This document shows, piece by piece, positions 33,322-58,009 of a stretch of 64,000 bases of DNA. The position numbers and the translations under genes were made by a program. The stretch comes from a virus, in IMG/VR virus record IMGVR_UViG_3300026522_000001, positions 1-64,000 of that record; one strand, 5' to 3'. How positions within the stretch are numbered: position 1 is the first letter of the stretch; each line of letters begins with the position of its first letter. The notes under the pieces are model-generated. The model worked only from the letters and a program-made list of their open reading frames with translations. It was not told where the DNA came from and did no database searches.

Positions 33322-36300
33322 TTAATAGCTACCAACAATCTTATTAGTAAACTTAGCACTACCTCTTGTAAAGTCAAGCATAATTCTCTGACCTCTTGGT
33401 GAACGCATAAAGTGTGCTATGGCTTCTTCTTGGTTGCTTACTAATGCTACATTCATATTTGTTGTACTACTTACATTTGTTCCTAAAGTACTAGCAAATG
33501 TACTCATTCCTCTTGCAGTCTCTTGTGCCGCAACTTCACCACCATCTGCAAATTTAGGAACATTTATAATATTTGGTATTCTGCTAAAGTTACCATTATT
33601 TACAGCATTTAAGAATCCTGTTCCGTATTTTCTTACGGCGCTTGCTTTAACAACAAATTCTCCATTACTCAACATCGCAGGTATACTGTCACTTGTTGAT
33701 GTTCCTTCACCTTTAACATTTCCACCTGTAGAGAATTTTCTTATTAGTCCTCCATCCTTATGCCCTTGTTCTTTAGTTCCTTGCCCTGAAGGTATATTTG
33801 CAGCTGCTGTTGCTATAACGTCTAGTGCTTCCTTTGCACTTTTAGCTGAATCACTAAGTTCATCTAAACTAGTCTTTACTTCTGTTGAACTTTGCTGAAC
33901 TGCACTAGATAGCTGTTGCAAAGATGTATTTGTTTGTGATATTGTTGTTTCTATTGAAGCATTATTTGTAGCTTGCTGTGCTTGTGCAGAAGCATTTGCT
34001 ACTGTTGGAGTAGATAATGCTGATTGTGATTTCTTCAATTCACTATATGTTTTATTTTGGTCTAATACTCTAAAGTATCCACCAGTACCATCTTGCATCC
34101 ATGTATTTTTTAAGTCATAATTCTTTTTGCTATTATCCATCTCAAAATAATGACCAGTTTCGGGATTTTTAAGGCCTAATATATCTGAGGAATCTCTATA
34201 TGTTTGTAGACCCTGTATTCCAGTACCATCTTCTGATGCTATAATATGTAGCTGTGACCTGATAGGTGAAAAATAGTCTGTTAAACCATTTTTATCTACA
34301 TTTTTATATTGATTAAGTGTATATATTTGCCCTGGTGTTACTTTAGACGCAAGATTTTCTGTTGTTGGTTGTCTACCAGACTCGTCTTTTACTGGAAACC
34401 ATTGTTGCATAAGCCCTTCAACAAGTCTCTTTGCAAAGAACTTTTGCATTGTCTTTAGGAAATCTACAACCATATTTTGTAGAGCTTCACCTAATGAATG
34501 AGCTTCATTTACCCCGTCTGTAAGGAATGTTACAAGCCCATCTTCTAGTGCTTGTCTTGCAGTTTCATGCGTTTCTTCTAATAAAGTTTTTATATGACTT
34601 AACATACCAGAAATTCTCTCTTTATTAGCTATCTCTTGCATCTGACTCATAGAAGCTGTCTGTCTTTCCATCTGTAAAGCTATATCAGCATTTAACTCAT
34701 CTATTCTTTTTGTTACATTAGCCACTTCTTGAGAGCCTTGTGGAAGTCTATCTCTTTCTGCCTGTTTCTTGCTTAATTCTTCTCTTAATCCTGCTATTTG
34801 TATCTGCCTACTCATATAGTCATTATTCATAGCGGCATATTGTTGTTTATATGCTTTATTTAATTCGGCATTTTTATAGGCTTTCATCTCCTTATTTGCT
34901 TCTTCTCTTTGAAGGTTTGTCATAGGTATATTTTCTAATACACTATTCATGTAGTCATACCTATCAGAAATTGCTTGTGTCATACCATTTAATATACTAT
35001 ATAATTTTTCTTGTGCACTTATTAGCTTTTTCTTTATTTCTTCTGCTTTTTCAGAATTACCCATAGCTGTAAACTCAGCATATTGCTTTACTAGAGCTTC
35101 CATCTGATAAGCAGGTGTTTGTTTAGCAAGATTTATTTTTGTTCTAAGTGTATCTAATTCTTTATTGTACTCTGATAATTCAACATCTGATTTTTTCTTT
35201 GCAACAAAATATGCTTGTTCTTTTATTTTTAGGTCTGATTTTTTCTGATTCCAAATCTTCTGTTCTGCAAGTAAATCATCTCTTGTAATGTTCTTACCTG
35301 CTGTTTTATCAGACATATCAAAGCCCTTATTATACTTAATAAGCATTTCATAGAACTTTTGATTTTCTTTACTAAATTCTTTTCTTACTTTATCATAGTC
35401 TGATTTAGCGTTTTGTGTATTTCTTATATTAGCATATTTACCAATATCAGAACGCTTTAAACCTTCTCTTAAAGAGTCTTGTAAGCCTTTTCTCCAATAA
35501 TAACTATCAAACTGTTTCTTATTCTCATTGTTGTTTCTATACGCCCACTCTTTATCATTAGCTTCTTTCCAACTATTATAATAAGTCTTATATGACTCGT
35601 TCATCATATCATTACCACGAAGTGCTAATAATCTTTGTGTATCTGCATGTAAGTCATTTAATACATTTAGCTTATCAACTATTCCTTGGTTCTTAATATA
35701 ATTACTATCATTTAACTTCTTATATGCACTTTGTAGTTCTTCTTTTGATGAAAGTCTATAATAATAATCACTAAGCATATTTCTACTTTCTTCCATTGAC
35801 TGCCAAGAGTCAACAATATTTTTATTATTACCTGTGTTATTAAATCTCCAAAGTGCATCATTAGCAGGACGTTCTTTATCATTTATTTCTCTATATTTTG
35901 GATTTGATTTATCCCATCCTATTGAATCCATTTCTGTTTTATATTTTTTATATTCAGAAAATAAATAATTAAATTCACTTACTAAATCTTTTGCATTATT
36001 TTGTGACTCAAATACTTCCATCTTGCTTGTAAGATTTTCATAAGCTTTCTTTAATTCACTAAACCCATTAGGATTAGATAGGAAATCATATATTTTTTGT
36101 CTCTTATCGAGTGTATCTCTTATTAAGGATATACTTTCAGGTTTATTTATATAACCTATATATTTTTCTGCTAATTCACCAAAATCTGTATCATAGTTTT
36201 TATATTTTCCATAAGCAACTTCATATGCACGATACTTAGCTGTTGTTTCAAGTCTACTTATATTAAAGTCAAGCTGTTTTTCTAGTGCATCTGTTACAAC

Positions 36301-39300
36301 TTTTGCTGTCTCTTGTCTTATTCTTATATTTAGTGCGTTAACCATATCACTAGCTTCAGGAGAATTACTTCTTTTGGCTTTTTCTAGCTTTTCATAAAGA
36401 CTTCTTAACTTTACTTCAAGCATTGGCTGACTACCAAATATATCAGAATTTATATCACTTAATATATCCTTGTATTCATCTATTTTCTTTTGCATATCTT
36501 CAAATGCTTGCATAGCTTCTTTTGAGCTATGTGGAGAAAATAGAGACATCCTTCCATTAGATGAACCGCCACTTAATGCAACATTCTGTGAACCTGTTCT
36601 TATTACTGCATTTGTTCTAGCTAACCAATAATTTAAGTCTTGTTCCATAATACCACTACCACTAGAAGTATTTGGGTTATTATGTGAGCTGTTTCCTACA
36701 GTATGCTGTGCGTCTTTTACCATAACAACATGACCATAATCATTTGTAACTAAAACATCACCCGGCTGTGCAATACTTGTATTTGTGTCTACTGCAATCC
36801 CTTGACTCTTTGCATCACTAACAAGTCTATCAACATTTGCTACACCTTTAGCATATTCATCTGCTAAGAATGTGTTAAACCAACTACCTAGTCTAACTAC
36901 TGCTTCTACACACCCATTAGCTAAATCAGGCATTTCTGCATTTCTTAGTCCACTATTTAATGCTGTATTCAATGCACTTGTAATAGCATTTCCTGCATTA
37001 AATCCTATCTGCTCTCCTAATGCTTGGTTTCCTATTGAGTTACTAATATAATTAGCTAATGTTATTCCGCTTTGTGAAATTTTCTGCTGATATTCTTGTG
37101 CTAATGAAATATATCCACTTAAGTCATTTGTGGTCATATAACCGCCATTATGGAGTATGTTAAATGCACTAGAAGCATCATGTGACTGTAAGAATCCACT
37201 ATATCTATCTTGTTCTAATACTTCTGCTAAATCTTTAGCGGCGGCTGATAAGTCAGGAAATTTTACATAATATCCACCCTCATTAGAAGGTCTTGCGTCA
37301 CCACGCATTGACATTGGATAATTTTCATTCCACGTTATGCCAGCTGGGTTATTATCATTTACAAATACATCACTTGTTCCTCTTGCTGTTTCATTAGCTA
37401 TAAGTCCTGCTATTATTCCAATATCAGGTGAAGTTCCTGTCTGTGCTTGGATTGCCTTAGAAACTTCTATTGCTAAGTCTAATACTTTATCACCTGTATT
37501 AGCTTGTGCACCATTCGTTCCTGACTGCTGTACCATCTGCATAGAAGAAAGTGCATTACTAAATTGTGCAGATGCTTCAAGCATTACTTCGCTATATGTA
37601 CCTAAGTCTCTACCAATTTCTTTTTGTGTTTGTGTAGCTTTAGCAAGTTCTTTTGTATATTTATTTATTTCTCTTTGTACTTTATGTTCTTCTTTTAGCT
37701 TATCATACTCGTTTGCAAATTTACTTGTCTGTATAGCGGCTAGTTCTTCTTTTGCTTCTTCTAGTCTAGCCGCCGCTTCTTCTTTTTCGATTTCTGTTTT
37801 CTGCATATAATAATCTTTTACAGACTTAAATCCTTCTTTATATGCTATGTCATTTTTTTCAAGTAAATCTTTTAGTGCTTCTATCTTATCGCTAAGAATC
37901 TCTTTTAGTCTTTCTCTGTTTTCTTTTAGCATATCTTGAGATTCTTTAATAGCCGCTCTATTTGCCTTATCTGCTTCTCTTTGTGCTTTAGCTTTTTCTT
38001 TGCTATCGTCAGCAGGTCTGCCTTTTAATGCGTTTTGATTTGGATTTTGAGTTGAAAGTATATGTTCCCTATTATTTAAGAAATTTCTTATACCTTCAAC
38101 AAAATCATGCAAATTCTTATGTGGTTGTGAATTTTCTCCTGCTTCTCTTGCTTGCTGACCTCTTTCTCTCCATCCATTTATGGTTTGAATATCTCTGTAA
38201 GAATTTGTTATTATATCTGCACCTGTAATGGCTATCCCTGCGATTGGGATATATTTCTTTAACATGCCTTTTGCGGCTTCTGCTGCATCTACTCCTGCTT
38301 GTGTAAATGCCTTTGCCGCACCTTCTGCATCACCATGCATCAAATCCCACACAGCCTTAACAACATTGTATAAAGTTCTAAAAATAGCAACAACAGGTTT
38401 TACATATGAAACAATACCTATAAGTACATTCTTAATTATTGCAAAAGCATATAAAGCATCATAACCTAAATCTTCAATAGATGTTTTATTTTCTTCTAAT
38501 AAAGCAATTACATCTATTATTCTTTCTGCAATGAATACTAATAAGCCAACACAAATACTTATTGCGTCGCTAAGTGAATCTACAGAATCTTCTGCCCCTA
38601 GAGATTGCTCTGCATATTCTGCAACCTCTATAATAGCATCACCGATAATTTCAACAAAATTAGCAACAAAATTAAGTAATCCTTCAAATGATTCACTTAA
38701 TGTTATTACAGTAGCATTTTGTTCTTCTAATGCTTGTGTTTCTTCTTCTGTTGCTCCTGTTGCTTCTCTATACTTTGTAGCATCATCTTGCAGTCCTGTA
38801 TCTTCTGCATTTTTATCTACCGCCGCTTGGTCTGATGTATCAATACCATTTCTTGCCGCTGATGATTTCTTTAGCACATCCCATTTTGCAGAGTTTGGAT
38901 TGATTCCCATATCATAGACTGTTGCTATTTGAGAACCTACCCATTTCATAAACTCAATTACAGGCTGTTTTACTGCATCACTATCAAATACACTTGCTAG
39001 TGTTAATTCCCATGTTGATTTTAAGCTGTCAAAAGCACCACCTAGAGTAGCAATGTTTTCTCTGTTTGATGCAACGAAACCTGCTAGTCTATTCTCTAAC
39101 CACGCATATAAATCTTCACCTTTGGCTTTTACTTCTTTAATTTCTTCGTCTGTAATGCCTAGTTGTTTAGCCATTACAGTTCTGTTAGCCATACCATTAA
39201 AGATATCTCTTGTATCTCTTGCGATAGTCAAAGAGTTTAATTGAAGTTCTTTACCAATAGTTGTGAACAAATTAGCCATTTCTTCAATCTGACTAATGTT

Positions 39301-41655
39301 CATTCCTGATTGTAAGCCAGGCTCAATGATTGCTCTAAATGTATTTGTTATTGCTTCTAGGCTAGTACCTGTTTTTATTGCGTCTACTGCTAGTTGCTTA
39401 ACAATACCATCTGCCATATTTAGTGCTTGGCTAAATTGTAGTGGTTGATTATTTAGCAAACCTATTGATGACATAGCACCTGCAATACCATTACGCATCA
39501 TCTGCATAGCGTTTGCCGCTTCTAGCCCAGGCTTTATAATATAATCTTCTATTGCACTACCAATAGATTGTACAACACTAAAAAGTGTTTCTGTTGCTGA
39601 AATAGCACCACCGATTGCAACAGAAAATGCCGCCGCTCCTGCAACCATAGTAGAAAACATCTCTGGGAGAACCGCTAGACCATTGTTTATACCAAGTATT
39701 GACTTTTCTGCCATCTCCGACTGTCTAGCCAATTCGTGCATACCAGAACCAAATCCACGTTCAAAAGAACCTGCTAACTTAGCTAATTCTATCCCTGAAA
39801 GTCTTGTTGTGAGAATATTCTTTAAGGAAGATATTGTAGGCTCATATCTTCCTTCTACATTTGAACGTAATCCTGAACCTAGATTTGCATAGTTATTATT
39901 AACAGCCGCCGCTCTTTGACGTTTTAGCCATTCCCTTCTAGCATATTCATTCTTTATTGAAGGTAGGAAATCACCATATAATTTAGATTCTGCCGCATAA
40001 CTTAGCTTTCCTCTTTCTGTAAGGAATTGCTTCATGTTATTCATGATTCCTAGTGCTTCTTGTACTCTAGCATTTAAGGCTTTATTACCCTTATCAGCAC
40101 TGGTATCAAATTTATTTATTTCTGCAATAGTAGACGCAAGTTGTTTACGTAATTCATTAAACTGTTTACTATCATTATTTACCTCGCGTCTATTCTTCCT
40201 TATAGAGTCAGTTAATCTATCTACACCCGCAGAAGAATTTCCAGTATCACCTAATAACTGTTTAGCATAATTATTAAAGTTATTTTTTCTACTTTCTATT
40301 GTATTTTTTAGTTGTGCCGCTGTATCATATCTAGGGTCTTGTTCTGTTATTGTACCATTCTTGATTTGAGAAAGAAGATTTCTATATACTTTTTGCTGTT
40401 CTGAAATAGAACGTAAAGAATTTAAGAACTCATTTTGTGCCGCTTTTGTTGCATCTCTTTCAGCAACTAATGCATTATATTTACCAAGGTCTCCATCTCT
40501 CCATGCTTTTTCAGCACCTTGAGTAGCATTTTTTATTCTAGTATTAAACTGTTCATTTTTTTCTTTTGCAAGTCTTTCACGACGTTCTTTGTTTTCTAAA
40601 GCTGTTAATGCTCTATCTGTTTTTTCACGTTCTCTTTCAGCTTCTTTATCCTTGCGGATTTGTGCAATTTCTTCTTGCTTTACTTGTCTCCACATGGCAT
40701 CGATTTGCTTATTAGCTTCTGCCCTGCTTCGTCTTTCTTCTCTATCTAAAGCATTATTTGCTCTTGCTATATTATTAGAGGTTCTTATTCGTTCTGCTTT
40801 AGATATTTCAGGCTCATTTATTTTATCAATAACTTCTTGCCCTTTTGCTTTTAGCTGTTGCATTTTAGCATTAGCTGAATCTAGTCCATTACCAAATCCA
40901 TCTATATGAACAGCCTTTGCCTTATCCCCTAGCTCTTGTAAAAGCCCTATTGCCTGTGTTAAAGACCTTTGTGCATTTTTATTATCTGCAAGCCCATCAT
41001 ACATACTTGCTTCTAGCACTTTTACTTGTGCTAGTTTCTGCTTTAGCTTATCTAAATTAGGTGTAAGCCCTGCTTCTTTCTGCATAGTAAAAGAGTCTTT
41101 TATAGCCTTAGAAACAATTCCAGACCTAATTTGATAGCTTGCTATGCTAGGTGAATCTTTTAATGCTTTAGCAACAGCATTTTCATAACTCTTTACTGCC
41201 TTTCTAGCAGAGTCTACATCTAGCCCATTATTCTTTAAGTTTGAAAGCAATAGCCTAGCATCACTAGCCCTATTGTTTCCATATGAAAGATTTCCTGCTA
41301 TTTTTTGATTTGTTATATGGAATGGGGAATTCTTTATAGCAAGAGAGAGCGCCTTTAGTCTATTTAGAGCCGCTTCTAGTTCTGCTATATCTCTCTTTGC
41401 TTGCTTTGTGTCTACCCCTATTTTAATGTCTTTTGCTACAGTTGAAAGTTGTTTGCTTAATCCCTTTGTAGCAACTACTGATTCCCTCTCAAGGCTATTC
41501 TGCAAATTTTTAAGAGGTTTATTTACATCAAATTTTATGTTTGCATCATTTAGACTTCTTTTCCAGTCTGTTATTTTTCTTTTAGCTACGTCTAAATTTG
41601 CTAGTAGACTTTTTACATCCGCTTCTATGTCTACTACTATTTTTTCTCTAGCCAT
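33322..41655 (-). CDS. Tape measure protein with embedded glucosaminidase-like and CHAP/NlpC-P60-like domains
   Basis: 2777 aa; long coiled-coil regions and a Gly/Ala-rich hydrophobic core; NPAGITWNENYP...GGYYVKFPDL block; NGCVEAVVRLGSW...GDVLVTNDYGHVVMV block; follows the frameshifted chaperone. Confidence 0.85.
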   Translation of the reverse strand: MAREKIVVDIEADVKSLLANLDVAKRKITDWKRSLNDANIKFDVNKPLKNLQNSLERESVVATKGLSKQLSTVAKDIKIGVDTKQAKRDIAELEAALNRLKALSLAIKNSPFHITNQKIAGNLSYGNNRASDARLLLSNLKNNGLDVDSARKAVKSYENAVAKALKDSPSIASYQIRSGIVSKAIKDSFTMQKEAGLTPNLDKLKQKLAQVKVLEASMYDGLADNKNAQRSLTQAIGLLQELGDKAKAVHIDGFGNGLDSANAKMQQLKAKGQEVIDKINEPEISKAERIRTSNNIARANNALDREERRSRAEANKQIDAMWRQVKQEEIAQIRKDKEAEREREKTDRALTALENKERRERLAKEKNEQFNTRIKNATQGAEKAWRDGDLGKYNALVAERDATKAAQNEFLNSLRSISEQQKVYRNLLSQIKNGTITEQDPRYDTAAQLKNTIESRKNNFNNYAKQLLGDTGNSSAGVDRLTDSIRKNRREVNNDSKQFNELRKQLASTIAEINKFDTSADKGNKALNARVQEALGIMNNMKQFLTERGKLSYAAESKLYGDFLPSIKNEYARREWLKRQRAAAVNNNYANLGSGLRSNVEGRYEPTISSLKNILTTRLSGIELAKLAGSFERGFGSGMHELARQSEMAEKSILGINNGLAVLPEMFSTMVAGAAAFSVAIGGAISATETLFSVVQSIGSAIEDYIIKPGLEAANAMQMMRNGIAGAMSSIGLLNNQPLQFSQALNMADGIVKQLAVDAIKTGTSLEAITNTFRAIIEPGLQSGMNISQIEEMANLFTTIGKELQLNSLTIARDTRDIFNGMANRTVMAKQLGITDEEIKEVKAKGEDLYAWLENRLAGFVASNRENIATLGGAFDSLKSTWELTLASVFDSDAVKQPVIEFMKWVGSQIATVYDMGINPNSAKWDVLKKSSAARNGIDTSDQAAVDKNAEDTGLQDDATKYREATGATEEETQALEEQNATVITLSESFEGLLNFVANFVEIIGDAIIEVAEYAEQSLGAEDSVDSLSDAISICVGLLVFIAERIIDVIALLEENKTSIEDLGYDALYAFAIIKNVLIGIVSYVKPVVAIFRTLYNVVKAVWDLMHGDAEGAAKAFTQAGVDAAEAAKGMLKKYIPIAGIAITGADIITNSYRDIQTINGWRERGQQAREAGENSQPHKNLHDFVEGIRNFLNNREHILSTQNPNQNALKGRPADDSKEKAKAQREADKANRAAIKESQDMLKENRERLKEILSDKIEALKDLLEKNDIAYKEGFKSVKDYYMQKTEIEKEEAAARLEEAKEELAAIQTSKFANEYDKLKEEHKVQREINKYTKELAKATQTQKEIGRDLGTYSEVMLEASAQFSNALSSMQMVQQSGTNGAQANTGDKVLDLAIEVSKAIQAQTGTSPDIGIIAGLIANETARGTSDVFVNDNNPAGITWNENYPMSMRGDARPSNEGGYYVKFPDLSAAAKDLAEVLEQDRYSGFLQSHDASSAFNILHNGGYMTTNDLSGYISLAQEYQQKISQSGITLANYISNSIGNQALGEQIGFNAGNAITSALNTALNSGLRNAEMPDLANGCVEAVVRLGSWFNTFLADEYAKGVANVDRLVSDAKSQGIAVDTNTSIAQPGDVLVTNDYGHVVMVKDAQHTVGNSSHNNPNTSSGSGIMEQDLNYWLARTNAVIRTGSQNVALSGGSSNGRMSLFSPHSSKEAMQAFEDMQKKIDEYKDILSDINSDIFGSQPMLEVKLRSLYEKLEKAKRSNSPEASDMVNALNIRIRQETAKVVTDALEKQLDFNISRLETTAKYRAYEVAYGKYKNYDTDFGELAEKYIGYINKPESISLIRDTLDKRQKIYDFLSNPNGFSELKKAYENLTSKMEVFESQNNAKDLVSEFNYLFSEYKKYKTEMDSIGWDKSNPKYREINDKERPANDALWRFNNTGNNKNIVDSWQSMEESRNMLSDYYYRLSSKEELQSAYKKLNDSNYIKNQGIVDKLNVLNDLHADTQRLLALRGNDMMNESYKTYYNSWKEANDKEWAYRNNNENKKQFDSYYWRKGLQDSLREGLKRSDIGKYANIRNTQNAKSDYDKVRKEFSKENQKFYEMLIKYNKGFDMSDKTAGKNITRDDLLAEQKIWNQKKSDLKIKEQAYFVAKKKSDVELSEYNKELDTLRTKINLAKQTPAYQMEALVKQYAEFTAMGNSEKAEEIKKKLISAQEKLYSILNGMTQAISDRYDYMNSVLENIPMTNLQREEANKEMKAYKNAELNKAYKQQYAAMNNDYMSRQIQIAGLREELSKKQAERDRLPQGSQEVANVTKRIDELNADIALQMERQTASMSQMQEIANKERISGMLSHIKTLLEETHETARQALEDGLVTFLTDGVNEAHSLGEALQNMVVDFLKTMQKFFAKRLVEGLMQQWFPVKDESGRQPTTENLASKVTPGQIYTLNQYKNVDKNGLTDYFSPIRSQLHIIASEDGTGIQGLQTYRDSSDILGLKNPETGHYFEMDNSKKNYDLKNTWMQDGTGGYFRVLDQNKTYSELKKSQSALSTPTVANASAQAQQATNNASIETTISQTNTSLQQLSSAVQQSSTEVKTSLDELSDSAKSAKEALDVIATAAANIPSGQGTKEQGHKDGGLIRKFSTGGNVKGEGTSTSDSIPAMLSNGEFVVKASAVRKYGTGFLNAVNNGNFSRIPNIINVPKFADGGEVAAQETARGMSTFASTLGTNVSSTTNMNVALVSNQEEAIAHFMRSPRGQRIMLDFTRGSAKFTNKIVGSY

Positions 41656-42576: not shown

Positions 42577-44382
42577 TTACTGTTTCCACATCCATTTTGT
42601 ATTACCACATCTCCATACTTGAAATGCGCCTAGCTTATCCATTATATACACTTCTTTATTTCCTACTTCTTTATTTATTGCTTCTTCAAACAAATCAGGA
42701 TAATCTTTTTTTAGATATTTTAACTGACAATGCTCTCTTTTTATTTCTTCCCCGTTCAAATACCAATAATATCTAGGTGTAGACTGACTATCAAATTTAT
42801 ACCCCAATACAGGATATATTCCCCCTAAAAAGTAGTCATTATCAGAATAGCTTCTTATGTATTTAGGACTATATTCTCTAATAAAGGCTTTATGCAGTTT
42901 ATTTGCACCGCCTACAATAGTATATCCATCTTTTACACAATACCTGTGTAACTCATATTCGCCACTTTCTGCTTTTGTCAATCTAGGCTTACCAAAAATC
43001 ATTACAGAATATAATTCGTCATTATAAAACAATCCATAATTATACAATGCAAAATGCTTTTGTGTTCTGCCCTGAATATGATATTTGTCACAAAAGCTAT
43101 TTGCTTCTTCCTCTGTAATATGTCTTACAATACATTTTCTTGCATAGATTGCTTTATTTTTTACTAATAATGACCTTAAATACATTTTTATTTTTTCAGA
43201 GTTTTTCTTCCAGTCAACATCAAAAATACTAATTAGATGTACACCATTTTCTTTGCATGTCAAAAATTTTTCTCTATGATATTCTTTATCTTTGCAATAT
43301 AGTTTATTATTTACTGAATGAAATACACTACCGTTATATTCAATAGCTAAATGCTTAGATGGAATATAAATATCAAGCTCTTTTCCACCTAATACACTTC
43401 TATTATGTTGCACTACTTCCTCGTTTGTAATGCTTTTTACATAATCATATATTTCTAATTCTGCTTGTGAACCTCTCTGTGCAATGTTTACACAACCACA
43501 AGAATAGCACTTACCAGCTTTGACGGAAGTAACTCGCATTATCTTATCTTTTCCACAATGTGTACAATGGAATTTCCAAAAAGTTGCCCCGTCTTTAGTA
43601 TAAACATATTCTTTAGCTACTAAATATCCAAACTGTTTCCCTGTAATATCTTCATATCTATGCTCATGTTTTTTATGTCCACAAGAAGTTGTTAAACCAC
43701 TTTTCATTCTTTTACCACAGATAACACACTTCTTTCCGCAAGAACATGTACAATTCCAATAAGCCCTATGTTCTTTAGTATATGCAAAAGAATCAACATG
43801 CAATTCTCCAAAAGTCTTTCCCGTTAAATCCTCACCAAAATGATTATGCTTTCCACAATCATCTGTCTTACCATTTCTTAGCCTTTGTCCACTAGCTACG
43901 CATGTGTTCCCACAATCACATACACAATTCCAATAAAGCCTATTATCTTTACTATATGCAAAAGAAGTTACTGTTAGTTTTCCAAATCTTTTACCAATAA
44001 GTTCTTTTCTTTCTTCCTCTGGCTTACACTTGCCACAGGATTTTCTTCTTCCATTTAACAAAGAGTCTCCATCTGCAATAGTTTCATTTCCACAATCACA
44101 TTTACACCTAAATTTACTTTTACCAACATACTCCAATACAGTAAGGCTACCATACTTATTCCCAATCATATAATCATATTTTGTTGACTTCTTTTTTAAT
44201 ATACATTCTTTACAATGTGTTGTTATACCTTTTGTTAAATTTCCTGTTGCTGTTTCAATAGTGCCACCACAATCACATTTACATAACCAAAGTACCTTTC
44301 CACTATTTGATTTATGGTTGCATTTATTTAATACAACTAAGCTCCCAAATCTTTTCCCAGCTAAATTTAATGCTTTTGGCAT
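42577..44382 (-). CDS. Free-standing homing-endonuclease-like protein: 5 zinc-ribbon repeats, a Vsr/DUF559-like PD-(D/E)xK domain and a conserved C-terminal domain
   Basis: 601 aa; 5 repeats of G(K/R)xFGxLxV...W.C.CDCG...L..G....CG; ELDIYIPSKHLAIEYNGSVFHS; C-terminal half paralogous to ORF 45814-47460. Confidence 0.6.
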   Translation of the reverse strand: MPKALNLAGKRFGSLVVLNKCNHKSNSGKVLWLCKCDCGGTIETATGNLTKGITTHCKECILKKKSTKYDYMIGNKYGSLTVLEYVGKSKFRCKCDCGNETIADGDSLLNGRRKSCGKCKPEEERKELIGKRFGKLTVTSFAYSKDNRLYWNCVCDCGNTCVASGQRLRNGKTDDCGKHNHFGEDLTGKTFGELHVDSFAYTKEHRAYWNCTCSCGKKCVICGKRMKSGLTTSCGHKKHEHRYEDITGKQFGYLVAKEYVYTKDGATFWKFHCTHCGKDKIMRVTSVKAGKCYSCGCVNIAQRGSQAELEIYDYVKSITNEEVVQHNRSVLGGKELDIYIPSKHLAIEYNGSVFHSVNNKLYCKDKEYHREKFLTCKENGVHLISIFDVDWKKNSEKIKMYLRSLLVKNKAIYARKCIVRHITEEEANSFCDKYHIQGRTQKHFALYNYGLFYNDELYSVMIFGKPRLTKAESGEYELHRYCVKDGYTIVGGANKLHKAFIREYSPKYIRSYSDNDYFLGGIYPVLGYKFDSQSTPRYYWYLNGEEIKREHCQLKYLKKDYPDLFEEAINKEVGNKEVYIMDKLGAFQVWRCGNTKWMWKQ

Positions 44383-45813: not shown

Positions 45814-47460
45814 TTATTCCTCCCTTAAATTAAACAACCATTTTGTGTTGCCACTTCTATATACCTGACTTGCATTTAATTTTGTCATTACATAAATTTC
45901 TTTATTTGAAGCATTTTCTTTTAATGCTTCATTATAGATGTCTTTATACATTTCTTTTAGGTATTTTAACTGGCATTTTTCTCTTTTAAGCTCTACGCCG
46001 TTTAAGTACCAATAGTATCTAGGGTTTGTATACCCACTAAATGTATATCCTAGTCTATTGTAGATATTACCACTAAAGAAATCATTATCAGAATAGCTTA
46101 CTATTTGTTTTACATTGTGTGTTCTTTCAAAATACTTGTGTAATTTATTTGCCCCACCGACTACTGTATAGCCGTCCTTTACACAATATCTGTGTAATTC
46201 GTAGTAACCTTCTTTATTTTTAACAAATCTTTGATTACCAAAACACATTACACTAATCAATTCATTGTTATAGTATAAACCATAAATATATTTTGAAAGT
46301 CCTTTTCTTGAAGCCCCTTGTAAATGATATTTATTACAAAAGTCTTTATATGTCTCATAGTCTACATGTACTAGAGCGCATTTTCTTGCATATACCACTT
46401 TATTCTTTGTTAGCAATGATTTTAGATACATTTTAATCTTTTGTTTGTTTGATTCCCAGTCAACATCAAAGATATTTATTAAATGTACTCCTTTTTCTTT
46501 TGCTAATTTAAATTTATTAAAATGATATAGCTTGTCAACATTATCATATACGGAATTTACTGTTGCATGAAACATACTTCCATTATATTCTATACCTAAT
46601 TTATATTCAGGTAAATACAAGTCTATTTCTTTACCATCAAGAATTTCTCTTGTTTTTTCTATCTTTATATTTTTATTTAGTGATAATATATAATTTTTAA
46701 TTTCTAATTCTTCACTAGAACCTTCTTTTGCTATTGAAATGCAACCACAAGACTTGACTTCGCCGCGCATTACATATATTTTCTTTGCAATTATTTCATT
46801 ACCACAATCGCATCTAAATTTCCAGTAATGCCTTTTATCATCGCCCACATGGTCGAAACATATAGCTGTTAAATGATTGAATTTTTTATCCGTAATATCA
46901 ATAGTTCTTTCTTCATCTCGTAAACATCCACAAGACTTAGACCTCCCTGCTAATAACTTAGCTTTTTCTACTACTGATGTATTTCCACAATCACACCTAC
47001 ATAACCATTTTGCATCACCAACATAGGAAACTACTGTAAACCTACCAAATCTTCTACCAATAAATGAAGTGTCAATCTTTTTTCTACTACACCCACAAGA
47101 ATAATCTTTATCGTTCTTATGTGATATTAAGTAACTTCTTTTCTTTGTTGTGTAGTTTCCACATTCACACTTACATTTCCACAAGTCATTACCTAAATAT
47201 TCAACAATGGTAAGTTTCCCTATCTTTTTATTTAATAGGTCTTTGTTAAAGTTTTTTCTTTGTGCTTTCTTTCTTTGCTCTTTTCTAAAACACCCACAAG
47301 AAATTACCTTACCAGTATTTAGCAATGAACCTTGTACGGTTGTGTAATTTCCACAATCGCATTTACATAGCCATGCAGTCCGCCCGTTCTTCTTGCCATT
47401 CTCTCGAATAACTGTTAGTCTGCCAAACCGCTTTCCTGAAAGTTCTAGCTTTCGTCCCAC
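45814..47460 (-). CDS. Free-standing homing-endonuclease-like protein, paralog of ORF 42577-44382 (4 zinc-ribbon repeats, GTG start)
   Basis: 548 aa; EIDLYLPEYKLGIEYNGSMFHA; LHRYCVKDGYTVVGGANKLHK and PRYYWYLNGVELKREKCQLKYLK nearly identical to the paralog. Confidence 0.6.
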   Translation of the reverse strand: MGRKLELSGKRFGRLTVIRENGKKNGRTAWLCKCDCGNYTTVQGSLLNTGKVISCGCFRKEQRKKAQRKNFNKDLLNKKIGKLTIVEYLGNDLWKCKCECGNYTTKKRSYLISHKNDKDYSCGCSRKKIDTSFIGRRFGRFTVVSYVGDAKWLCRCDCGNTSVVEKAKLLAGRSKSCGCLRDEERTIDITDKKFNHLTAICFDHVGDDKRHYWKFRCDCGNEIIAKKIYVMRGEVKSCGCISIAKEGSSEELEIKNYILSLNKNIKIEKTREILDGKEIDLYLPEYKLGIEYNGSMFHATVNSVYDNVDKLYHFNKFKLAKEKGVHLINIFDVDWESNKQKIKMYLKSLLTKNKVVYARKCALVHVDYETYKDFCNKYHLQGASRKGLSKYIYGLYYNNELISVMCFGNQRFVKNKEGYYELHRYCVKDGYTVVGGANKLHKYFERTHNVKQIVSYSDNDFFSGNIYNRLGYTFSGYTNPRYYWYLNGVELKREKCQLKYLKEMYKDIYNEALKENASNKEIYVMTKLNASQVYRSGNTKWLFNLREE

Positions 47461-55566: not shown

Positions 55567-55640
55567 TGGAGCGAATAATCAGAATCGAACTGACATATTA
55601 TCCTTGGAGGGGATATGTTCTACCATTGAACTATATTCGC
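55567..55640 (-). tRNA. tRNA-Gly (anticodon UCC), CCA encoded, unusual C33
   Basis: GCGAATA/TATTCGC acceptor, GTTC/GAAC D stem, TATCC-CCTCCAA-GGATA anticodon arm, GTCAG-TTCGATT-CTGAT T arm, U73. Confidence 0.75.
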
Positions 55641-55642
55641 AT

Positions 55643-55716
55643 TGGATGCGGAAGAAAGAGTTGCACTTTCATCTCCTGCCTATGAAACAAGTATTCTTCT
55701 GTTAAACTATTCCGCT
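55643..55716 (-). tRNA. Non-canonical tRNA-like gene, anticodon CAU (Met or Ile2), CCA encoded
   Basis: Acceptor GCGGAA/TTCCGC with an A1xA72 mismatch, U8 A9, weak D stem GTTT/GAAT with D loop lacking GG, CTTGT-TTCATAG-GCAGG, T arm GAAAG-TGCAACT-CTTTC (G at position 55). Confidence 0.5.
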
Positions 55717-55717
55717 A

Positions 55718-56036
55718 TGGTTGAGATAGATGGGCTTGAACCATCGACCTTTGGTTTATCTTGCTACTACATATTTCTATGTCCACAAAAAATATTGTGT
55801 TGTAGTCTGGGCTATATCTTCATCATTTCAGATGGGCAACGTATAGTCTCTACGAATCCTGTGCAATCAGTTTTCTCGGTATTGTCTTTAGCATTACCTA
55901 GTAAGAGTTTCACCGATATAGTTGCCTGCACTTTATACATTAACTCATTACATTAAATCTATTGCAAGTAATGATTCTGTATAAAGGCTCATATTATGTT
56001 TAAGACCACTGCTCTAACCTACTGAGCTATATCTCA
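55718..56036 (-). tRNA. Intron-containing tRNA, most likely tRNA-Ile (UAU); exons 56002-56036 and 55718-55759
   Basis: Exons join to TGAGATA TA GCTC AGTAGGTTA GAGC A GTGGT CTT|ATAA ACCAA AGGTC GATGG TTCAAGC CCATC TATCTCA A CCA. Confidence 0.75.
55760..56001 (-). ncRNA. Group I (IC3-like) self-splicing intron in the tRNA anticodon loop, 242 nt, ORF-less
   Basis: 5' splice after U, last nt G, IGS GAGCC, P2 TTTATACA/TGTATAAA, P3 GGCAAC/GTTGCC, P4 TCGGT/ACCGA, P9 ACTACA/TGTAGT. Core GTAGAGACTATACG resembles GUAGAGACUAGACGG of tRNA IC3 introns. Confidence 0.8.
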
Positions 56037-56040
56037 ATTA

Positions 56041-56115
56041 TGGTGGGCTTACTAAGAATCGAACTTAGATTGTGGGATTAGAAGTCCCATGTATTATCCT
56101 TTATACTATAAGCCC
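56041..56115 (-). tRNA. tRNA-Arg (anticodon UCU), CCA encoded
   Basis: GGGCTTA/TAAGCCC, GTAT/ATAC, TGGGA-CTTCTAA-TCCCA, CTAAG-TTCGATT-CTTAG. Confidence 0.9.
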
Positions 56116-56338
56116 ATTATTACAAGTTTTTTCCTGTTTCCCCACCAAGCAGAATGGAAAACTTGAAAAACCATCTAACACACCCACATATTACTATGTA
56201 TATATCCATATGTAATGTTAGTCCCTAAGCCAGCTTACATTTTACTAGACGCATTTGATAAAGATTTATAAATCATATATGTATAACTTTTTTCAATTAA
56301 TTGCTGTGTGCGTCTATTCCCTTACCGCTTATATATTT

Positions 56339-56367
56339 ATTATACCACAGGTTAAGCCCTGTGTCAA
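56339..56367 (-). promoter_or_regulatory. Consensus promoter upstream of the tRNA array
   Basis: Minus strand TTGACA (56362-56367)-N17-TATAAT (56339-56344). Confidence 0.6.
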
Positions 56368-56427
56368 TACCTTATTTTTTTTTATTCTCCAAACTTGAAA
56401 TTCTGTTCTCCCCGATGACATGTACTT

Positions 56428-56456
56428 ATTCTAACACATATTAGCCCCAATGTCAA
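56428..56456 (-). promoter_or_regulatory. Second tandem promoter upstream of the tRNA array
   Basis: Minus strand TTGACA (56451-56456, overlapping the DUF2828 stop)-N17-TAGAAT. Confidence 0.5.
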
Positions 56457-58009
56457 CAGTATTTGAAAATTTCTTCGACAACGTCATAGCGGGACTTATT
56501 CAGCTGTCTGCAAAAGGCTTTATATGGGTCAAGTTCATTACAACAAACCATATCTACAAGCTCTTTACTAAATCCACTCAAAAGAATTACACCATTTCTT
56601 GAGCTTTGAATTGGGACTGTACCATCATTATAACAAGAGACATTCCAAAAAATGAGTTTAGGAAGTTCATACCCACAATCCTTATACTTCTTCTCAATAT
56701 TCTCAAATAATGTGTCATTTTCTTGTATATTTTGATTGCGTAATGGGAATCCAAATGCATCTGTATCACACATAGCAGTATTAAACTGCATATCAGAAAT
56801 GATAAGAACATTCTTTGGCATATCTGCCTGTGTCGCATTACACTTCTTTGCTGTTTTTAGGATGAGGTCAAATACAGATTCAACATTAGTTGTACTACAT
56901 TCTGTATTTTTCATTAGCTTTTCTATATTGTCCCTTAATGTATTGCAGTTTACTGTAATCATCTTTGGGTTATTAGAAAATGCCATGATTTTATCTTTGA
57001 ATACACCTGTATTATTTTTTGCACAATACAGAGCAATTGAATCCCCAATTTCCATCGCTGAAACATTTTTTGATACATATGATAACATAGAGCCACTTCC
57101 ATCTCTAACAACAAGCGTATCAGCAAATGTTTTTGGTTTCTTTTGAGATTCCCAAAGACTCTCTAGGGTATTGTCAACAGGTTTCATTCCAATGCCAAAA
57201 AAATTAGCATCTTTCTCATATGCATGAACTATGTCATACAAAAACATAGAATTAGCATTTATCTTATTTTCGCCACGAGCTACATCAATAAGATATTCAT
57301 TTCTTCTAGCAAAATCGTGCTTAAGAAAAGAATCCTTATACTTGATATTTGCTAAAGATGGTACATGAGAGTAATCTACTTTATCCCATTTATTTGAACT
57401 TAACTTTACCTCTAAAACATCTAGCCCTTTTCTTAGTTTAGAAAGTGTTTTTCTATACTGTGAAGGAGACATTCTAAAATATTTTCTAAGTTCATTACCA
57501 ACTGCTACTGTTTTCTTTGAAGATGTATTGATACTCGGCATCCATTTTGCTAAAAGACTGTATGGCTTTCCATTGGAATAATTATATAAGTCATCATAAA
57601 GCTGTTCTTGCAAAATCCCTGCAATATATATTTTTAAGTCATCATATTTTGTATTTGCAAAAAGATAAATATAGTCGTCCCATCTGCCAAATTCAGGCAA
57701 GTCAACCGTGTAAATAAATCTATAGAAAATAGACATATCGATTTCTGTAAGATGAAGTAGCAACTTTCTAAAAGTATCTCTTTCACCCATTCCTTCTCTG
57801 ACATCTCTCAAAAAGAGAAGGAATCTTAATGTCATAGCTTTATCTTGATAATATGCTTCATCAAAAAGAGAATAATCTATTGGATTTTCCCTAAATGATG
57901 AAACTTTATAGAAAAAATCTAAAAGTTTACTGCCTGTTGTAGCATAAGCTACTGCACCATTTTCTGTTGTTGTTTTTACATTGTTTTCAAGATTTTCAAT
58001 AAAATTCAT
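56453..58009 (-). CDS. DUF2828-family protein (TROVE-like N-terminal region plus vWA-like C-terminal domain)
   Basis: 518 aa; N-terminal TTENGAVAYATTGSKLLDFFYK...FLLFLRDVREGMGER as remembered for DUF2828; C-terminal VVRDGSGSM...LIISDMQF is vWA/MIDAS-like. Confidence 0.65.
   Translation of the reverse strand: MNFIENLENNVKTTTENGAVAYATTGSKLLDFFYKVSSFRENPIDYSLFDEAYYQDKAMTLRFLLFLRDVREGMGERDTFRKLLLHLTEIDMSIFYRFIYTVDLPEFGRWDDYIYLFANTKYDDLKIYIAGILQEQLYDDLYNYSNGKPYSLLAKWMPSINTSSKKTVAVGNELRKYFRMSPSQYRKTLSKLRKGLDVLEVKLSSNKWDKVDYSHVPSLANIKYKDSFLKHDFARRNEYLIDVARGENKINANSMFLYDIVHAYEKDANFFGIGMKPVDNTLESLWESQKKPKTFADTLVVRDGSGSMLSYVSKNVSAMEIGDSIALYCAKNNTGVFKDKIMAFSNNPKMITVNCNTLRDNIEKLMKNTECSTTNVESVFDLILKTAKKCNATQADMPKNVLIISDMQFNTAMCDTDAFGFPLRNQNIQENDTLFENIEKKYKDCGYELPKLIFWNVSCYNDGTVPIQSSRNGVILLSGFSKELVDMVCCNELDPYKAFCRQLNKSRYDVVEEIFKYC

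Follow-up and report, generated by a model that had tools for sequence, protein, structure and literature searches.

Small group I introns that interrupt the anticodon loop have been described in bacterial tRNA genes. The Azoarcus pre-tRNA-Ile intron, a self-splicing group I intron of 205 nucleotides (nt), is located in the anticodon loop and does without the Tetrahymena-type peripheral domains. In phages, all group I introns known up to 2014 were in protein-coding genes, despite the many tRNA genes that phages carry (2014 review, PMC3984707). The introns of Lak megaphages, which lie in Tyr, Phe, Gly, and Thr tRNAs, were reported as the first in any phage tRNA and were left unclassified, being called neither group I nor self-splicing (Devoto et al. 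2019, PMC6784885). In this work, we analyzed a 64,000-nt stretch of viral DNA (IMG/VR record IMGVR_UViG_3300026522_000001, positions 1 to 64,000), referred to here as the window, and within it a tRNA-Ile(UAU) gene on the minus strand at 55718-56036. We conclude, with a probability of roughly 0.85, that this is a phage tRNA gene in which a small group I intron, of the kind known from bacterial tRNA genes, separates U34 from A35, with splicing predicted from the sequence.

The 5' exon (56002-56036, minus strand) contributes the 5' strand of the acceptor stem, the D arm, the 5' strand of the anticodon stem, and C32, U33, and U34, as placed by ARAGORN in intron mode, with the stems checked. The 3' exon (55718-55759, also on the minus strand) opens with A35, U36, A37, and A38 and continues through the 3' strand of the anticodon stem, the variable loop AGGUC, the T arm, the 3' strand of the acceptor stem, A73, and an encoded CCA (55718-55720). 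On the unspliced DNA, ARAGORN in intron mode reports tRNA-Ile(tat) with a 242-nt intron at position 36, which reproduces the boundaries given for both tRNA halves and for the insert in the original prediction, an earlier reading of this DNA made from the letters alone. The default mode of ARAGORN skips the split gene in the window. When the exons are joined in silico, the ordinary mode recognizes a 77-nt tRNA-Ile(UAU) with a 7-bp acceptor stem, a 5-nt variable loop, an encoded CCA, and the anticodon loop CU-UAU-AA, just as had been expected for a splice between positions 34 and 35. A cloverleaf check indicates that the exons retain all stems and the conserved tertiary tRNA positions. In 25 long open reading frames (ORFs) of the window, 60% of Ile codons are AUA, which occurs 41 times per 1000 codons, and 69% of Arg codons are AGA, so that the split tRNA-Ile(UAU) and its intronless neighbor tRNA-Arg(UCU) fit the Ile and Arg codons that the phage uses most.

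The insert (55760-56001, minus strand) is 242 nt long, has no ORF of its own, and was detected by Rfam, by ARAGORN, and by a covariance model of the intron family. This model draws on 14 viral introns embedded in tRNA genes, and the window is not among them. It has a single match in the 64 kb, at 55760-55930(-), with a score of 135.3 bits and an E value of 2.2e-36; the match is full-length, and its end coincides with the 3' splice site. The score falls within the range of tRNA-embedded introns (approximately 95 to 172 bits). Most other matches to the core pattern score below about 85 bits, and those that were inspected extend into longer P9 extensions and coding sequence. The Rfam group I intron model (RF00028, Intron_gpI) matches 55789-55964(-) over model positions 1-253, with P3 through P9 aligned, a match not listed in two whole-window Rfam runs (one at the gathering threshold and one with an E value filter). 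Based on the match to a model made without the window and on the covariation described below, the insert is real, far beyond chance, and the prediction of a group I insert is upheld. The ORF list for the intron region contains only short or antisense ORFs and no maturase-like ORF. A 104-amino-acid (aa) plus-strand ORF was rejected as a gene, being antisense to the tRNAs and mirrored in one relative (L202, described below) only through tRNA conservation. A match to YrlA, a Y-RNA-like RNA, over the tRNA-Arg and the 5' exon of the tRNA-Ile (19.5 bits against a threshold of 69) was dismissed as tRNA-like noise.

The fold and its covariation were assessed in an alignment of 16 tRNA-embedded intron cores. 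Without guidance, RNAalifold recovers P3, P4, P5, P6, P8, and P9 together with two sub-hairpins of P9. For pair counting, the full group I topology was specified, with nine helices and the P3/P7 pseudoknot included. Standard pairs occupy 97.3% of the cells, compared with 76% in column shuffles and 27 to 42% when partners are slid by 1 to 3 columns, and changes on both sides are seen in 29 of the 40 pairs. On each of the five measures, the observed value lay beyond those of all 500 shuffles. In the P7 pseudoknot, pairing stands at 99%, and 3 pairs covary. Covariation strongly backs the P3-P9 fold, including the P3/P7 pseudoknot.

The individual helices, all on the minus strand, follow the order expected of this topology. 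P2 (55931-55986) pairs CUUUAUACA (55978-55986) with UGUAUAAAG (55931-55939) in the minimum-free-energy fold of the segment; it is shared with introns of tRNA-Arg(UCU) and tRNA-Lys(UUU) described below, and it shows a G-C to C-G exchange relative to one of these, L018. Within it, an inner hairpin CAUUAC/GUAAUG (55946-55973) occupies the spot where relatives hold an HNH ORF. P3 is formed by GGCAAC (55921-55926) and GUUGCC (55835-55840), and all 6 of its 6 pairs covary, with 3 to 5 pair types each. In the P4-P5 domain (55876-55916), P4 pairs UCGGUG (55911-55916) with UACCGA (55876-55881), J4/5 is AAA, and P5 (UCUU at 55903-55906 with AAGA at 55885-55888) surrounds an internal loop and a hairpin. 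P6 (55854-55875) consists of GAA (55873-55875) and UUC (55854-55856) with an inner CUG/CAG hairpin. It is followed by J6/7 and the 5' strand of P7, GUAGAGACUA (55844-55853), an invariant block in the alignment that includes the guanosine-binding G at 55848 and, beside it, A55847, which lies opposite C55811 in the 3' strand of P7, UAGCCC (55809-55814). P8 and J8/7 span 55815-55834, with CAUC (55831-55834) and GAUG (55821-55824) closing a UGAAAU loop and J8/7 reading AAGAUA (55815-55820). The P9 domain (55763-55806) is closed by ACUAC (55802-55806) and GUAGC (55763-55767) and holds P9a (55784-55799) and P9b (55769-55782), the latter with a GAAA loop. The helices P2, P3, and P4 had been predicted and are confirmed by the family alignment and the segment fold, and the predicted core GUAGAGACUAUACG is present. 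P9 had also been recognized, in a register 3 nt away from that of the family alignment; the 3' end of the intron, GUAGUAGC, permits both registers, and the alignment favors ACUAC/GUAGC followed by AAG. The architecture is compact, with P3' 3 nt after P7, a P5 region of 27 nt, and a J2/3 of 4 nt, and it is without P7.1/P7.2, P5abc, and P2.1. The earlier description as IC3-like fits this architecture, as well as the small size and the location in a tRNA.

Both splice sites can be placed by base pairing and by comparison with relatives. The intron starts with AAACAUAAUAU-GAGCC, in which GAGCC (55986-55990) is the internal guide sequence. Its GAG (55988-55990) pairs with C32-U33-U34 of the 5' exon (56002-56004) to form P1, with a U·G pair at the splice site, and this GAG guide is common to all introns of the family that are found in U34 tRNAs. 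The original prediction had named GAGCC as the guide, with a U-G pair at the last U of the 5' exon. The CUU/GAG portion with its U·G pair is contiguous; for the following CC to pair with G(-5) and G(-6), a mismatch or bulge has to be spanned. Immediately adjacent to the guide, UAU (55991-55993) is the 5' strand of P10 and pairs with AUA (55757-55759), with which the 3' exon begins. The base preceding GAG changes together with base +1 of the 3' exon, being U/A in Ile and Leu, G/C in Arg, and G/U in Lys introns; this covariation with tRNA type supports P10 and the assignment of the splice sites. The intron ends at G55760, the omega-G at the 3' splice site, where the covariance-model match also ends, and a G ends every intron of the family. 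In all 19 of 19 cloverleaf-scan matches, the 5' exon ends in CUU, the GAG guide follows, and the terminal G is present. Both the terminal G and the UAU/AUA P10 had been proposed before, and both are borne out, the first P10 pair by its covariation with tRNA type.

By this arrangement, the tRNA cluster would be transcribed as a precursor in which the intron folds into the P3-P9 core, and the GAG guide would pair with C32-U33-U34 of the 5' exon to form P1, with the U·G pair at the cleavage site. Free guanosine bound in P7 would attack after U34. The terminal G55760 would then occupy the P7 site, and the 5' exon would attack after G55760. Alignment of the exons would rest on the 3-bp P10 and also, if bacterial tRNA introns are a guide, on the anticodon stem of the tRNA. 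The predicted product is a tRNA with the intact anticodon loop CU-UAU-AA.

A search with the large terminase (TerL) found three related viral contigs, which allow the same slot to be compared in close relatives. The gene order of the tRNA cluster is the same in the window and in two of them, L201 and L202. L201, whose TerL is 97% identical to that of the window, has an uninterrupted tRNA-Ile(UAU) in the slot (L201:3934-4010). This tRNA is only about half identical to the exons of the window; the flanks are about 90% identical. The homology between the window and L201 stops exactly at the ends of the tRNA gene, as if a whole tRNA gene had been swapped as a cassette. L202 (TerL 94% identical) has a tRNA-Ile(UAU) split at the identical position, GGUCUU|AAA ... 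AAG|AUAAACC, by a 923-nt intron that encodes a 252-aa HNH_3 endonuclease. At this one site, therefore, L201 has no intron, the window has one of 242 nt, and L202 has one of 923 nt. The ORF list of the window contains no endonuclease ORF in its intron. The presence of intron-free, ORF-less, and ORF-bearing alleles in close kin is the classic signature of a mobile intron. The most likely reading of the window's intron is a selfish mobile element whose gene for a homing endonuclease was lost; the close relative L202 has an HNH intron at the same site, and L201 has none.

A further case is the metagenome contig L246, which has 11 tRNA genes and a higher GC content, and where an intron of 195 nt interrupts tRNA-Ile(UAU) at this site. 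In the window, L202, and L246 alike, the acceptor and T stems show complete pairing with sequences that differ almost throughout, and pairing is also seen in the D stems. Stems that stay paired despite divergent sequence indicate that the exons are maintained as a working tRNA, which would require removal of the intron. Scans of metagenomes and genomes yielded L246 as the single true orthologue, the other matches consisting mainly of odd tRNAs and of tRNA-like repeats without relation to it; none of the three collections contains the contig of the window. Among the patterns tried, that of the 5' junction (14 specified bases) gave chance matches only, and that of the 3' junction gave, in viral contigs, the L202 contig plus chance matches in coding sequence. 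A separate observation from these scans is a unit resembling a tRNA 3' half, CGG-GAUAAACCGNAGGUC-T arm-GGCUC, which is present in L226 (three copies 64 nt apart), L214, L223, L249, and other contigs. These contigs come from metagenomes and metagenome-assembled genomes, the latter labeled as Patescibacteria/CPR, Bacteroidota, and other phyla. In some contigs the unit is in tandem, and none of these copies has a matching 5' half directly upstream.

The intron belongs to a wider family in viral contigs, where a scan with the core pattern found at least 119 loci. The intron boundaries that ARAGORN gave for relatives were rejected because they led to wrong anticodons (Ser-GCT, Lys-TTT, and Stop). 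Cloverleaf geometry was used instead to re-derive the boundaries, together with the requirement for a U at the end of the 5' exon and a G at the end of the intron, and the flanks were inspected. Group I introns interrupt tRNA-Arg(UCU) at at least 11 loci in the scan and at one in LR756508.1, and tRNA-Ile(UAU) at at least 3 loci and a probable fourth (L073). They are also found in tRNA-Lys(UUU), tRNA-Leu(UAA) (L106), and tRNA-Leu(UAG) (L099), and the Leu introns fit the covariance model. All of these introns split the gene at 34/35 after CUU (C32-U33-U34). Other split sites are 35/36 in tRNA-Asn(GUU) and 36/37 in tRNA-Arg(CCU). In L202, L112, L023, and L113, HNH ORFs in the introns begin inside the 5' strand of P2. 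The core of the window is closest to Arg-UCU introns (72% identical to L112) and 57 to 59% identical to the other two Ile introns compared, L202 and L246; the core of L202 is closest to that of L018, an Arg-UCU intron (75%). Each of the three Ile introns, those of the window, L202, and L246, is nearer to Arg-UCU introns than to one another. This suggests that the family has moved repeatedly between different U34 tRNA genes, which a guide of only 3 nt, GAG, would permit.

GenBank phage records also contain split tRNAs of this sort that have gone unnoticed. GenBank LR756508.1 (L265), a 484-kb uncultured phage, has two split tRNAs approximately 130 nt apart (L265:1362-1629 and L265:1761-2012), which are Lys-UUU and Arg-UCU. 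Both introns are group I, and the second has a compensated P7, GAGGCCA/UGGCCC. In Microcoleus phage My-WqHQDG (OR578706.1; L264:1013-1298), the record annotates a 286-nt "tRNA-Arg." The gene encodes tRNA-Arg(CCU) and is interrupted at 36/37 by a group I intron of 213 nt; the preprint on the Microcoleus phage makes no mention of the 286-nt "tRNA-Arg." The DnaB helicase gene of the cultured crAss-like phage Kolpuevirus "frurule" is interrupted by an intron (L266:1354-1560) that reaches 93 bits with the model of tRNA introns; a GIY endonuclease ORF accompanies it. The tRNA introns are thereby linked to the introns of phage protein-coding genes. The P4-P6 segment of the window is 89 to 93% identical over 42 to 47 nt to introns of DNA polymerase and nrdB genes in cultured phages.

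Several features of the locus weigh against the conclusion that this is an active intron in a functional tRNA-Ile gene. The match to RF00028, a search that the original prediction had proposed, does cover the core with an E value of 1.5e-6 in a 551-nt search, but its score of 32.5 bits is below the gathering threshold of 50. P1 has only three contiguous pairs (CUU/GAG). The anticodon stem contains a G27·A43 mismatch, which is the same in L202, and the isoleucine identity of the tRNA, which would decode AUA, is taken from the anticodon alone. Finally, P7 has an A·C mismatch (A55847·C55811) directly beside the guanosine-binding G-C pair, a feature that the original prediction had overlooked and that could reduce or abolish catalysis.

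The 3' strand of P7 is UAGCCC in the window and UAGUCC in the family. The guanosine-binding G-C pair and the bulged A are present; A·C takes the place of the flanking A-U. In a set of 101 distinct aligned introns, this pair is A-U in 95, G-C in 1, and G·U in 1, and it is A·C in the window only; the C variant occurs in 0 of 94 distinct viral cores that have the same P7 5' strand. The fully compensated G-C pair is that of the second intron of LR756508.1, and given its existence, the A·C of the window may be an evolutionary intermediate. The Logan assembly of SRR7971120, possibly from the same sample, is 100% identical over 3.4 kb, C55811 included, which counts against a one-off assembly error at this position.

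Based on this mismatch, the alternative that survives best is that the intron is real but crippled, with an inactivated or severely weakened ribozyme, a tRNA that is a pseudogene in the making, and AUA decoded by the host. The uniqueness of the mismatch and its position next to the guanosine-binding pair are consistent with such decay, as is the loss of the endonuclease ORF, and the different intronless tRNA-Ile(UAU) of L201 indicates that the slot can be refilled. However, all other helices are intact, and the intron reaches 135 bits against a model made from other introns. The exons keep every stem and the conserved tertiary positions, and the heavy use of AUA argues for keeping the tRNA. 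One relative has G-C at this position and another has G·U, so the A·C could be an intermediate that is tolerated. On balance, we consider a crippled intron unlikely, and an intron that is removed by splicing remains the preferred reading. The sequences themselves show the tRNA halves, the group I fold with its covariation, the family, and the presence or absence of the intron among relatives; actual splicing, aminoacylation with isoleucine, and mobility in the past are inferred.

It is somewhat less likely still that the intron is kept in phage U34 tRNAs because it is useful, as an anti-defense device or as a timing device for translation. Host anticodon nucleases cleave tRNAs, Lys-UUU for example, at the wobble base or next to it. 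If the intron did serve in this way, a precursor split after the wobble U would escape recognition by these nucleases, and guanosine-dependent splicing would release decoders of AUA, AGA, and AAA at times set by the condition of the infected cell.

Very unlikely, in our view, is an intron that is spliced in vivo only with a phage or host protein, either a maturase or an RNA chaperone, that offsets the short P1 and the P7 mismatch. Protein-assisted group I splicing does occur in organelles and fungi, and the three contiguous pairs of P1, the 3-bp P10, the weakened P7, and an uncharacterized protein adjoining the tRNA cluster that is labeled "RNA-binding" in PHROGs would all suit such an intron. 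Nevertheless, small bacterial tRNA introns with an equally short P1 self-splice, and the Azoarcus pre-tRNA-Ile does so efficiently at 37°C. By homology, the "RNA-binding" protein is also located beside the intronless allele region in relatives, and the ORF list of the window contains no maturase-like ORF. A protein-spliced tRNA intron of the bulge-helix-bulge type was rejected on the basis of the 34/35 site and the complete ribozyme core, with no bulge-helix-bulge search made; protein-spliced tRNA introns are short, lie canonically at 37/38, and are removed by a splicing endonuclease. A spurious resemblance, caused by misassembly or by an unrelated insertion between tRNA fragments, would account for the lack of any hit at the Rfam gathering threshold and for the gene being skipped by default ARAGORN, but it is effectively refuted by the covariance-model E value of 2e-36, the covariation, the identical sequence in the Logan assembly, and the same split in L202 and L246 with different introns and exons.

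The split gene is part of a minus-strand tRNA cluster (55567-56115) just upstream of the packaging genes. The cluster contains the intronless Arg-UCU (56041-56115), the split Ile-UAU, Met-CAU (55643-55716), and Gly-UCC (55567-55640), and Leu-CAA is also a member; the order on the minus strand is Leu-CAA, Arg-UCU, a gap that holds the split Ile, Met-CAU, and Gly-UCC. In its anticodon loop, the intronless tRNA-Arg(UCU) reads CUUCUAA, the site at which introns of this family are most often inserted in other viral contigs. The tRNA-Met(CAU) is unpaired at 1:72 (A opposite A), scores a modest 44 bits with Rfam, and may be initiator-like, or a lysidine-type tRNA-Ile, instead of an elongator Met.

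The window encodes a small terminase, a large terminase, a portal protein, and a major capsid protein. The genome has a GC content of approximately 30%, and cultured phages are only distant kin. A 518-aa protein (56453-58009, minus strand) with DUF2828, DUF7788, and a weak vWA domain match is assigned to PHROG 850 ("RNA-binding protein"). It is encoded directly upstream of the tRNA cluster, with a noncoding gap of 337 nt (56116-56452) in between. Within the structural module, two related ORFs of 601 and 548 aa (42577-44382 and 45814-47460, both minus strand) match PHROG HNH/homing-endonuclease families with E values of 1e-75 to 1e-82 and have no Pfam domain. A single ORF of 2777 aa is at 33322-41655 (minus strand).

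A group I intron in a phage tRNA gene runs against the generalization of 2014 that phage group I introns are in protein-coding genes (PMC3984707). It makes phages a concrete candidate vector for tRNA introns and is relevant to a long-standing question, namely whether bacterial and cyanobacterial tRNA introns are patchily distributed through ancient inheritance or through lateral spread. In addition, default tRNA finding misses such split genes or misassigns their anticodons, so that phage tRNA repertoires and codon-matching analyses undercount the very tRNAs that AT-rich phages use most.

Among described introns, the tRNA-Leu(UAA) intron of cyanobacteria and plastids, exemplified by that of Anabaena, has the same 34/35 site after U34, a 5' exon ending in CUU, and a small size. 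It differs in being on a bacterial or plastid chromosome and in tRNA-Leu, whereas the intron of the window is in a phage and in tRNA-Ile(UAU). The Anabaena intron presumably also has a GAGCC guide and a P9 that encloses two hairpins, the second with a GAAA loop. The Azoarcus tRNA-Ile intron is likewise compact and in the anticodon loop of a tRNA-Ile, but it is bacterial. It is located in tRNA-Ile(CAU), inserted 3' of the anticodon rather than at 34/35. Its J6/7-P7 block, GUAGAGACUAGACGG, appears similar to that of the window, and it is not known to have endonuclease-bearing relatives. Bonocora and Shub reportedly described, in 2001, a cyanobacterial tRNA-fMet intron with an intron-encoded endonuclease. 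That intron resembles those of L202, L112, L023, and L113 in having an endonuclease within a tRNA intron, and it differs in the tRNA and in its bacterial host; the endonucleases of the viral family are HNH_3.

The group I introns of phage protein-coding genes (T4 td and nrdB, Vibrio phage phi 1 DNA polymerase, Yersinia phage fHe-Yen9-04 nrdB, and Kolpuevirus "frurule" DnaB) are phage-borne like the intron of the window and often carry HNH or GIY ORFs. In contrast to it, they interrupt ORFs, and their guides target coding exons. The Lak tRNA introns share with the window a phage tRNA gene that is cut in the anticodon loop. The Lak Tyr-GUA intron, however, is 93 nt and is predicted to lie after the base that follows the anticodon, while that of the window is 242 nt, has a group I core, and is at 34/35. 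Based on size, site, and the group I core, with one Lak sequence (Tyr-GUA) compared, we rejected the possibility that the Lak introns are the same element. The Lak study is the sole account of introns in phage tRNAs that the literature search turned up.

A full-text search, which covered few subscription journals, turned up no paper in which a group I intron is described as interrupting a phage tRNA gene. The original prediction had singled out this placement as unusual, and the 2014 review (PMC3984707) agrees with it, but the placement recurs in viral contigs and in two GenBank phage records. The mechanism is known from bacterial tRNA introns; the phage tRNA setting is apparently new, and undescribed rather than rare.

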